Shown here piece after piece: positions 200 through 1,998 of a stretch of DNA of 39,577 nucleotides. Both the position numbers and the translations under genes were made by a program. Source of the DNA: Escherichia phage vB_EcoP_IMEP24; sequence record MZ648215.1; one strand, given 5' to 3'. Each line of letters starts with the position of its first letter. Positions within the stretch are counted from its first letter, which is position 1. Under the pieces are notes generated by a model. It made no database searches. It was not told the DNA's origin and saw nothing but the letters and a program-made list of their open reading frames with translations.

Positions 200-279
200 A
201 GTCCAACAACCTACAGTCCAACAACCTACAGTCCAACAACCTACAGTCCAACAACCTACAGTCCAACAACCTACAGTCA
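200..279. repeat. Tandem array, 5 perfect copies of 15-bp unit AGTCCAACAACCTAC, just inside left terminal repeat
   Basis: Read directly: agtccaacaacctac x5 then partial copy; CCTACAGT motif recurs at 302-322 and near right end. Confidence 0.9.
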
Positions 280-754: not shown

Positions 755-932
755 GTACCACACTGAAACGACAGTGAGTCCCAACACTGAAACGGGATAG
801 CACGGCGACGACAGCCAACGCGAATGCTCTTTAACAATCTGGATAAACTCTTAATGTGCGCCGATAGCGACTAACTACAGGGTCTTTGAGTCTACATCTG
901 AAGGCCCTGACTGATAGTCACTAACTTAACGG

Positions 933-1187
933 ATGGACACTATGAAACACTTAAGCACAATCACTAATCACAATGAAATATTCGTGAACACTAAAGGTTA
1001 TGCGTGGATTCAGCTTAAAGAGATGACAGGAGCGCGTCACCGTGTGGTAGTGCGCAAGGTCTCAAGCAAGCCGTTCAGTAACTACAGTGTAGATACTGTG
1101 CGTATAGACAACGAGACCTACCTGATAGACTCGCAGATAACCGTGAGTCCTACAGCGAGCGCCTCAGCTCCTTATTTCGCTAACTGA
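933..1187 (+). CDS. Hypothetical early protein (84 aa)
   Basis: ORF in early region upstream of Ocr-like gene; no recognised similarity; weak SD so start uncertain. Confidence 0.45.
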   Translation: MDTMKHLSTITNHNEIFVNTKGYAWIQLKEMTGARHRVVVRKVSSKPFSNYSVDTVRIDNETYLIDSQITVSPTASASAPYFAN

Positions 1188-1274: not shown

Positions 1275-1835
1275 ATGGAACGTAACGCTAACGCATACTA
1301 TGAGCTGCTGGCTGCAACCGTTAAAGCATTTAACGAGCGTATTCAGTACGACGAAATAGCTGAAGGCGATGACTACAGCGATGCGCTACATGAGGTCGTA
1401 GACGGTATGGTTCCGCACTATTACCACGAGATTTTCACGGTGATGGCTGCTGATGGTATAGACCACGAGTTTGAGGACTCTGGGCTGATGCCTGATACCA
1501 AAGACGTAACGCGTATACTGCAAGCTCGCATCTATGAGGCGCTTTATAACGACGTGTCTGATAGCTCGGATGTGGTATGGTTTGAGGCTGAAGAGAGCGA
1601 CGAAGAGGATGAATATTGGGTAGTTGACGCTAAAACAGGACTAATCATTGCGCAAGCTGTACCACTTAAAGACGCTATTGCGGTAAGTCGCAGTCCCTCT
1701 AAGGTAATAACAGGGGACACATACCACCTTGCAGGAAAGGACTTCAAGTCCAAAGACGAGGCGATACGCTATGCGGTTGAGCTTGCTGGCGGTCTTACTG
1801 TGACCAAGATGACAACCATCGCGGTGGAAGTGTAG
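1275..1835 (+). CDS. ocr: Ocr-like anti-restriction DNA mimic (T7 gene 0.3 homolog) with ~70-aa C-terminal extension
   Basis: N-terminal ~115 aa match T7 Ocr ([43 protein letters not shown], acidic stretch [11 protein letters not shown]); RBS gagagga upstream; 186 aa vs 117 aa in T7. Confidence 0.85.
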
Positions 1836-1908: not shown

Positions 1909-1998
1909 ATGAACGTCGGTTACTGGGTGTGCTTATCTCCGGTCATCTTTCTGATAGCTTGGGGCCTTCTGGACGCAATCAAGCGAGGGTCATTCTAA
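1909..1998 (+). CDS. Small hydrophobic peptide (29 aa), early gene
   Basis: ATG 6 nt after AGGAG (1898-1902); MNVGYWVCLSPVIFLIAWGLLDAIKRGSF; stop overlaps next ATG (TAATG). Confidence 0.4.
   Translation: MNVGYWVCLSPVIFLIAWGLLDAIKRGSF

Follow-up and report, generated by a model that had tools for sequence, protein, structure and literature searches.

The DNA analysed here (the window) is the complete sequence of Escherichia phage vB_EcoP_IMEP24 (MZ648215.1; 39,577 bp), a K1F-like T7 relative (Kayfunavirus) with a genome of ~39.6 kb. Its left end is 88-95% identical to that of many Kayfunavirus phages of Escherichia, Citrobacter and Shigella, and its length is normal for the genus (38.4-41.3 kb among the records). 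The gene of interest lies at positions 1275-1835 on the + strand and, according to the ORF list, runs from ATG to TAG and encodes 186 amino acids. It is preceded, 7 nt 5' of the ATG, by a Shine-Dalgarno-like GAGAGGA (1261-1267, +; read from the letters) in a region that is collinear with the ocr upstream region in K1F, pO2 and L008 (blastn). Two sigma-70-like sites are located further 5' (578-607 and 726-754), and an 84-aa ORF (933-1187) sits between these promoters and the ocr part of the gene. The upstream intergenic DNA also contains a repeat element (1186-1242, +; second copy at 863-925; direct-repeat families D1 and D2), which may represent a T7-type RNase III processing site. The larger part of the first copy (1188-1239) also matches pO2 (L007 1322-1371, blastn) between ocr and a second early gene described below (the HTH-CTD gene); this pO2 copy falls in a block that is absent from the window. 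As expected for a member of the Ocr family, the gene has an early position, with the RNA polymerase gene starting after it at 2619, and the locus is collinear with the K1F 0.3 locus. The ocr gene of T7 is found at the equivalent place in the genome, after early promoters and repeat elements. The remaining early region (1836-2618, +) comprises small hydrophobic ORFs, a 0.6-like ORF and a 108-aa ORF (2195-2521), and is collinear with the DNA 3' of the HTH-CTD gene in relatives (blastn).

The first 113 residues (1275-1613, +) constitute an intact Ocr DNA-mimic core together with its acidic tail. Pfam family PF08684 ('DNA mimic ocr'; bit-score cut-off 25) matches residues 8-96 with 109.2 bits (E=1.6e-31), PHROG 2568 ('ocr-like anti-restriction') matches residues 1-120 (E=4.7e-54), and the sequence of the T7 Ocr crystal structure (1S7Z, chain 15-115) aligns with residues 15-112 (E=1.8e-27). 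With 31 Asp/Glu versus 6 Lys/Arg (pI 4.05), this part is as extremely acidic as T7 Ocr (gp0.3), to which it is homologous over the whole structured core. Judged by these sequence matches, the protein belongs to the Ocr family (PF08684/PHROG 2568), and a preliminary description of this DNA had correctly recognized its N-terminal part as an Ocr homologue including the acidic tail. T7 Ocr stops after the acidic tail at 117 aa, whereas the window protein is chimeric and runs on for 73 non-acidic residues (114-186, pI 8.2). The same description had noted a continuation of ~70 aa without T7 counterpart, and the tail sequence that it quoted is correct as well. No stop codon follows the acidic tail in this gene or in the genes for >100 related proteins; a simple frameshift or read-through is therefore not the explanation of the tail.

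The beginning of the tail is typical for the genus. Gene 0.3 of K1F encodes 169 aa, not 117, and its acidic tail is followed by YWVVDTRTGEIIEAAVSLYEAIACAKELYEEGFHMQVEDINDNVVFDPAAAEEDCE. When 5.8 billion protein clusters were searched, 537 matched, and among the best 120 nearly all were long Ocr proteins of 165-170 aa (e.g., K1F gp0.3, AAZ72964; SH3 gp2; pO2, WLJ69906; P0001, 168 aa). Their extension of ~55 aa begins with YWVVDAKTG, runs YWVVD...VVFDP and ends with a terminal EEDCE, and in intact form it is conserved across >100 protein clusters. Residues 114-136 of the window protein correspond to the first 23 residues of this extension, with residues 114-133 (1614-1671, +) being a remnant identical in amino acids to P0001 114-133. 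P0001 is the closest intact parent form among the matches listed (94% identity in the part that aligns, 75% of the query or about residues 1-140). It is identical to the window protein through PLKDAIA and then continues with CAKDLYEVGHHMKVEDINDNVVFDPVAEEDCE (CAKDLYEVGHH after AIA), where the window protein diverges; the DNA of its gene is identical to the window in the 27 bases shown, which end at 1681. Thus, the start of the genus-typical extension is common to both, but the last ~32 residues (CAKDLYEVGHHMKVEDINDNVVFDP..EEDCE) are absent from the window protein and unrelated sequence stands in their place. Having only 23 residues of the extension, the window protein is not a full member of the long Ocr group. 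The notion of an Ocr carrying a second non-acidic module, proposed in the preliminary description, holds for the intact 165-170-aa proteins of K1F-like phages; in the window phage that module is mostly lost, and the sequence found after it is a different one.

The intact extension itself gave chance-level matches only in a profile search against the PDB, and the papers found on K1F-type phages list a 169-aa 'DNA mimic ocr' and are silent on the extension. There are also shorter Ocr variants of 114 aa, i.e. P0112, in whose sequence the extension is missing (...EED/CE), and P0118 with 128 member sequences, which was judged by length only.

The end of the tail comes from another gene. Residues 137-186 (1682-1835, +, including the stop codon) match exactly the last 50 residues of a protein encoded by a separate early gene, which in relatives is located 220-350 bp downstream of ocr. 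At the DNA level, window positions 1674-1835 differ from the 3' end of phiHAO1-1 gp04 in 1 nt out of 162, with identical amino acids, and residues 134-186 of the window protein correspond to residues 63-115 of HAO1_gp04. The proteins of this type are 105-124 aa long and consist of an N-terminal HTH and a C-terminal part of ~50 aa (CTD), e.g., phiHAO1-1 gp04 (XAI67777) and SH3 gp4 (AMR59536), both of 115 aa, pO2 WLJ69905 (123 aa), VLCpiA3d_00001 and P1723 ZD95_4. They form a small family, all members of which come from T7-like phages (Kayfunavirus, Przondovirus, Foetvirus, Pectobacterium, Cronobacter and Citrobacter phages). Their N-terminal half is a homeodomain-like/transposase-type HTH: it is matched by Pfam BrkDBD, HTH_23 and HTH_Tnp_1 and by Brinker (2GLO) in a PDB profile search, is modelled by AF2 with a pLDDT of 81-92 in the intact protein, and gives Brinker/homeodomain folds as best local Foldseek matches in the PDB. 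The CTD is nearly invariant (about 90% identity) where the HTH halves share 35-60%, and all 18 invariant columns of an alignment of 24 family proteins are present in the window CTD. The window protein is not a member of this family in its architecture: Ocr takes the place of the HTH (about residues 1-58) and of the first part of the linker, the HTH-encoding 5' half of the gene being deleted, and similarity to the relatives sets in at their codon ~62. DNA binding by the HTH-CTD protein would be lost in the window phage. The tail is thus not one extra C-terminal domain, as had been supposed at first, but the product of a junction between an Ocr extension (114-136) and the end of another gene (137-186).

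The position of this junction can be given precisely. Local alignment showed that window positions 1275-1681 correspond to nt 1-407 of gene 0.3 in K1F, SH3 and pO2, and positions 1669-1835 to the last 167 nt of SH3 gp4 and HAO1_gp04. In blastn against pO2, the window aligns in two pieces, 900-1681 with L007 315-1081 (92%) and 1672-2700 with L007 1610-2636 (88.7%). These alignments are collinear on either side of a single gap and overlap on 10 nt, 1672-1681. Against phiHAO1-1, positions 1669-2618 align with L001 1719-2685 (88.9%). The block missing from the window amounts to ~530 bp compared with pO2 and ~650 bp compared with SH3 and phiHAO1-1, as calculated from the coordinates. The overlap is a 10-nt microhomology, ACGCTATTGC (1672-1681, +), that covers the codons for Ala134-Ile135-Ala136 and is common to both parent-type genes; it is present at both parental sites (in the P0001-type ocr and in the HAO1_gp04-type gene) and as a single copy in the window, where it is flanked by CCACTTAAAG and GGTAAGTCG. 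Among the parent proxies, the P0001 gene reads ...AAAGACGCTATTGC/ATGTGCC at the junction and HAO1_gp04 reads ...GAAAACGCTATTGC/GGTAAGT. A base-by-base, three-way comparison places the switch at GCTATTGC, which is found in both parents, each of them matching the window on one side of it only; with the closest proxies the common stretch becomes ACGCTATTGC.

The 186-aa ORF is therefore very probably a deletion-fusion gene, in which parts of ocr and of the HTH-CTD gene were joined at a microhomology. The ancestor would have been K1F-like, its gene 0.3 encoding an Ocr core and an extension of ~55 aa (165-170 aa in total), with a separate gene for a 115-123-aa HTH-CTD protein 220-350 bp downstream. 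Recombination or replication slippage between the two copies of ACGCTATTGC, one in each gene, would have removed ~530-650 bp. Gone with this block would be the ~32 codons at the end of gene 0.3, the DNA between the two genes together with any small gene that it contained, and the first ~62-70 codons of the second gene, which encode the HTH; the CTD would be kept from AIAVSR on. The product of such an event would be Ocr(1-113) followed by a 20-residue stub of the extension, AIA and the CTD (50 aa). Both genes read ACGCTATTGC in one and the same frame, as Ala-Ile-Ala, so that an in-frame fusion is the automatic outcome and is uninformative on selection. The parent had to be reconstructed from mosaic relatives, because no genome is more than ~94% identical to the window and an undeleted sister was not observed: a search for a genome near-identical to the window but undeleted found none, the closest being ~92-94% identical.

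In a pairwise comparison, deletion and insertion are formally symmetrical, and for this reason alone one could propose that the fused form is ancestral and that an insertion in the relatives split it into ocr and the HTH-CTD gene. This proposal is contradicted by the distribution of both intact genes and can be regarded as effectively refuted. Several genera have the split genes and, in each case, a complete HTH-CTD protein (Kayfunavirus, Przondovirus, Foetvirus, Pectobacterium phages), and the intact Ocr extension is present in >100 protein clusters. Furthermore, the insertion would have to supply the half of the extension that is missing here as well as an HTH fitting the family-wide architecture, and the microhomology exists at both parental sites.

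Early-region deletions are reportedly also a feature of Studier's T7 deletion mutants. Experimental-evolution lines of T7 recurrently fix a deletion of 1,489 bp that begins at the C-terminal end of gene 0.3, stops within the kinase gene 0.7 and occurs at a 10-bp homology, GAGGAAGTCG; further T7 deletions take place at homologies of 7-9 bp (PMC8923235; for earlier reports of T7 early deletions, see Cunningham 1997, Bull 2003 and Hammerling 2014, as cited there). Both the T7 early-region deletions and the event in the window start in the 3' part of gene 0.3 and end in a downstream non-essential early gene, have a 10-nt direct repeat at the junction, and are of sub-kilobase to kilobase size. The event in the window differs from those of T7 in that it took place in another phage genus, reached another downstream gene, and left the two genes joined in frame, with a conserved module of the second gene preserved in full.

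The junction is unique among the sequences searched. When the chimeric gene was compared with 50,697 phage genomes (megablast), 168 records matched, most of the matches listed covering nt 1-407 only, inside ocr genes (e.g., of K1F 0.3 and pO91). Coverage of 80% or more of the query was reached in nine records, always in two pieces that are spread over ~1,050-1,215 nt and belong to separate annotated genes. Similarly, in 25 out of 25 phage records the CTD is encoded by a separate gene (for 105-203 aa) and never joined to ocr. The Ocr::CTD fusion was absent from the search of 5.8 billion protein clusters, where most of the best matches cover 75% of the query; the few with 85-87% coverage, as far as inspected, proved to be usual long Ocr proteins of 169 aa. 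A degenerate junction pattern had no matches in IMG/VR and none in the JGI metagenomes, and in a protein-guided search for the locus in IMG/VR, tail residues 18-73 or 1-26 were matched, never a stretch across the junction. The proposed check for the same fusion in relatives has thus been negative for phage genomes, 5.8 billion proteins, IMG/VR and JGI metagenomes.

A junction seen only once may also be an artefact, arising from reads mis-joined at the 10-nt repeat or from a deletion variant that came to dominate during propagation in the laboratory, and T7 stocks do fix early-region deletions on passaging (PMC8923235). Nevertheless, we consider this very unlikely. Modern assemblers are not misled by a repeat as short as 10 nt, the DNA on either side is cleanly collinear with relatives, the reading frame is kept, and 39,577 bp is an ordinary genome length for these phages (38.4-41.3 kb). 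Besides, a deletion fixed in propagation would still be a deletion-fusion and would differ in timing only.

Other chimeras have been formed in the same region. P0023 (7 contigs) is an Ocr fused to the C-terminus of a gp0.4-like protein at a common RHLK, and P0123 has the N-terminus of gp0.4 fused to the CTD. In P0121 and P0152 (Cronobacter phage Dev2 gp0.2), unrelated N-terminal sequences precede the CTD, and these proteins were read as probable fusions. The early region around ocr is evidently deletion-prone, with recurring in-frame chimeras and losses. Searches with the CTD (phmmer against 1.84 billion representatives; profile search against the 5.8-billion set) returned only the 105-124-aa HTH-CTD proteins and a few singleton fusions, the fusions of the CTD other than that in the window being represented by 1-2 sequences each.

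These proteins bear on the question whether the tail was selected. The deletion could have made a useful bifunctional protein with the CTD as a second effector or partner-binding module, which would add an anti-defence or regulatory activity or alter the recognition of Ocr by Ocr-sensing systems. Indeed, the whole conserved CTD is kept in frame without a single amino-acid change, it is conserved far beyond its HTH partner (about 90% versus 35-60% identity), it also occurs behind other N-termini (P0121, P0123, P0152), and a non-acidic module at the C-terminus is natively accommodated in Kayfunavirus Ocr. An intact CTD in frame is also what selection for a working tail would leave. Yet we regard such domain shuffling as unlikely. 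Ocr::CTD is a singleton in every collection searched, the in-frame result is forced by the common Ala-Ile-Ala codons, the other CTD fusions are as rare as stated above, and the CTD has no family, fold or defence-related match. As the window differs from HAO1_gp04 by one nucleotide, recency and purifying selection are not separable. A more general form of the same idea, in which the CTD acts on its own as an effector or partner-binding module and its survival behind unrelated N-termini (Ocr, gp0.4 in P0123, P0121 and Dev2 gp0.2) reflects selection, appears improbable to us as well; the occurrence of the CTD behind unrelated N-termini is explicable by ascertainment bias, since these proteins were found by searching with the CTD. 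If the idea were true, Ocr::CTD would be a working two-function anti-defence protein, e.g., an Ocr engaging a second host target or escaping an Ocr sensor.

Structure prediction, suggested in the preliminary description as a further check on the tail, yielded a model for residues 114-186, but one of low confidence: the mean pLDDT of the AF2 model was 58.8 (25-sequence alignment), and only a β-hairpin (YHLAGKDF) and the helix after it reached ~70-76. In the AF2 model of the intact HTH-CTD parent, the CTD was weak again, with the hairpin and the helix at similar confidence, which speaks against a selected second domain. Foldseek found nothing in the PDB at E≤0.001, and the best local match covered the HTH half only; likewise, no significant match for the tail was obtained in searches of PHROGs, PADLOC and PDB sequences. 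Several candidates were rejected. The similarities of the tail to DUF2188 (Pfam E=0.18 and 0.09) and LysM3 (E=0.038) are below the threshold. The 400-3,000-aa repeat proteins (T9SS, BNR, DUF285) retrieved as distant CTD relatives by phmmer (1.84 billion sequences) are summed spurious matches, with 3-7 bits per repeat in mutually unrelated proteins. Homology of the long-Ocr extension to the CTD, prompted by the likeness in 'PLKDAIACAKDL', is unsupported (hhalign probability 1.4%). For the native role of the CTD, we can offer no more than a guess, i.e. oligomerisation or partner binding.

For the window phage itself, a normal anti-restriction activity is expected, as the core, the ribosome-binding site and the promoters are untouched, truncations of T7 Ocr are active, and the C-terminal module natural to Kayfunavirus Ocr has been lost in some lineages. 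The T7 proteins Ocr99 and Ocr109, which lack the C-terminal 17 or 7 residues, respectively, still block restriction (PMC3439906), and the C-terminal end of Ocr is permissive, because C-terminal truncations of T7 Ocr stay active. The fusion therefore probably keeps the Ocr DNA-mimic activity against type I R-M, and probably that against BREX, too, and its tail is most likely a tolerated passenger. Any activity of the CTD would now be tethered to the ends of the Ocr dimer.

The process that would have generated this gene is already known, and its product is a unique variant of a known protein that most likely brings no new biology. The value of the case is mainly cautionary, as what looks like a 'new domain' on a familiar anti-restriction protein is here very probably the trace left by a deletion at a microhomology, and automatic annotation would call the whole ORF 'Ocr'. 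At the same time, the early-region deletion behaviour that T7 displays in experimental evolution is met here in a natural or isolate genome. Two further findings may be worth pursuing, namely the HTH-CTD proteins, a phage-restricted early family with an unusually conserved CTD, and the uncharacterised module of ~50 aa that the Ocr of K1F-like phages has as a rule and that some lineages have lost. The natural series of the 114-aa and 169-aa proteins and the 186-aa chimera provides a panel for C-terminal effects on Ocr activity, and this length series is also useful for studying the detection of Ocr by Ocr-sensing defences.

Kayfunavirus Ocr proteins have a native length of 165-170 aa and carry a conserved, non-acidic module of ~50 aa, which is placed after the acidic tail and before the terminal EEDCE (pattern YWVVD..TG...L..A.A.AK..Y..G.H.KVEDINDNVVFDP). 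Long Ocr proteins with this module are encoded by K1F gene 0.3 (L003 1114-1623), by phage pO2 (L007 675-1178), by a further relative (L002 801-1310) and by a relative of metagenomic origin whose intact ocr is the closest one (L008 2242-2748); a remnant of the module is retained in the fusion gene (window 1614-1681). Searches of Pfam and PDB with the module gave no match, and the papers found on Kayfunavirus-type Ocr do not discuss it. Natural 114-aa Ocr variants lacking it can be found as well (P0112, as judged by sequence, and P0118, with 128 member sequences, as judged by length). The preliminary description had suggested a second domain on the anti-restriction protein; the native accessory module on Kayfunavirus Ocr is the real, general form of this idea.

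The HTH-CTD early proteins form a phage-restricted family, in which a homeodomain/Brinker-like helix-turn-helix (HTH) is followed by the C-terminal domain (CTD) of ~50 aa. Its members are 105-124 aa long, except for the protein of Pectobacterium phage JJY1 with 203 aa. Between members whose HTH halves share only 35-60% identity, the CTD is ~90% identical. The corresponding genes are located at L001 1538-1885 (phiHAO1-1), L002 1664-2011, L004 957-1295, L005 1348-1704, L006 793-1404 and L007 1402-1773, and their annotations differ by record (hypothetical, 'F-box domain-containing', 'SAM-dependent methyltransferase', 'SiR5 protein'). In L008, the HTH-CTD gene is replaced by a gene for a 282-aa Bro-N domain protein (L008 3297-4145), which illustrates the mosaicism of the early region.

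The early genes are flanked by intergenic repeat elements (window 863-925 and 1186-1242; related stretch at 1836-1889), among which CCTGACTGATAGTCACTAAC occurs twice as an exact repeat and GA.AG.GA.TAACTACAGG is a related form. These elements probably serve as RNase III processing sites of the T7 type; in the relatives, one copy lies within the block that is deleted in the window. Close to the left genome end, 5' of the early promoters, the 15-nt unit AGTCCAACAACCTAC is repeated perfectly in tandem, with 5.3 copies (window 200-278).

Between these promoters and ocr lies an 84-aa ORF (window 933-1187, + strand), which had no PADLOC match and is collinear with an annotated hypothetical protein in pO2; T7 is not known to have a counterpart at this position. 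The fusion gene is followed by two small hydrophobic ORFs (window 1909-1998 and 1999-2197, both + strand), whose products, a 29-aa peptide (MNVGYWVCLSPVIFLIAWGLLDAIKRGSF) and a 65-aa protein whose gene takes the place of K1F gene 0.6 (92.7% DNA identity to that gene), are likely membrane peptides.

Further chimeric ORFs, represented by database proteins, derive from the same early region as the fusion gene. In P0023 (7 contigs), Ocr is joined to a gp0.4-like C-terminus at RHLK, common to both, and P0123 combines the N-terminus of gp0.4 with the CTD. P0121 and P0152 (Cronobacter phage Dev2 gp0.2), where the CTD stands behind unrelated N-terminal sequences, are likewise probable fusions. In these phages, the 0.3-0.6 region looks like a hotspot of microhomology deletions that leave fusion ORFs.
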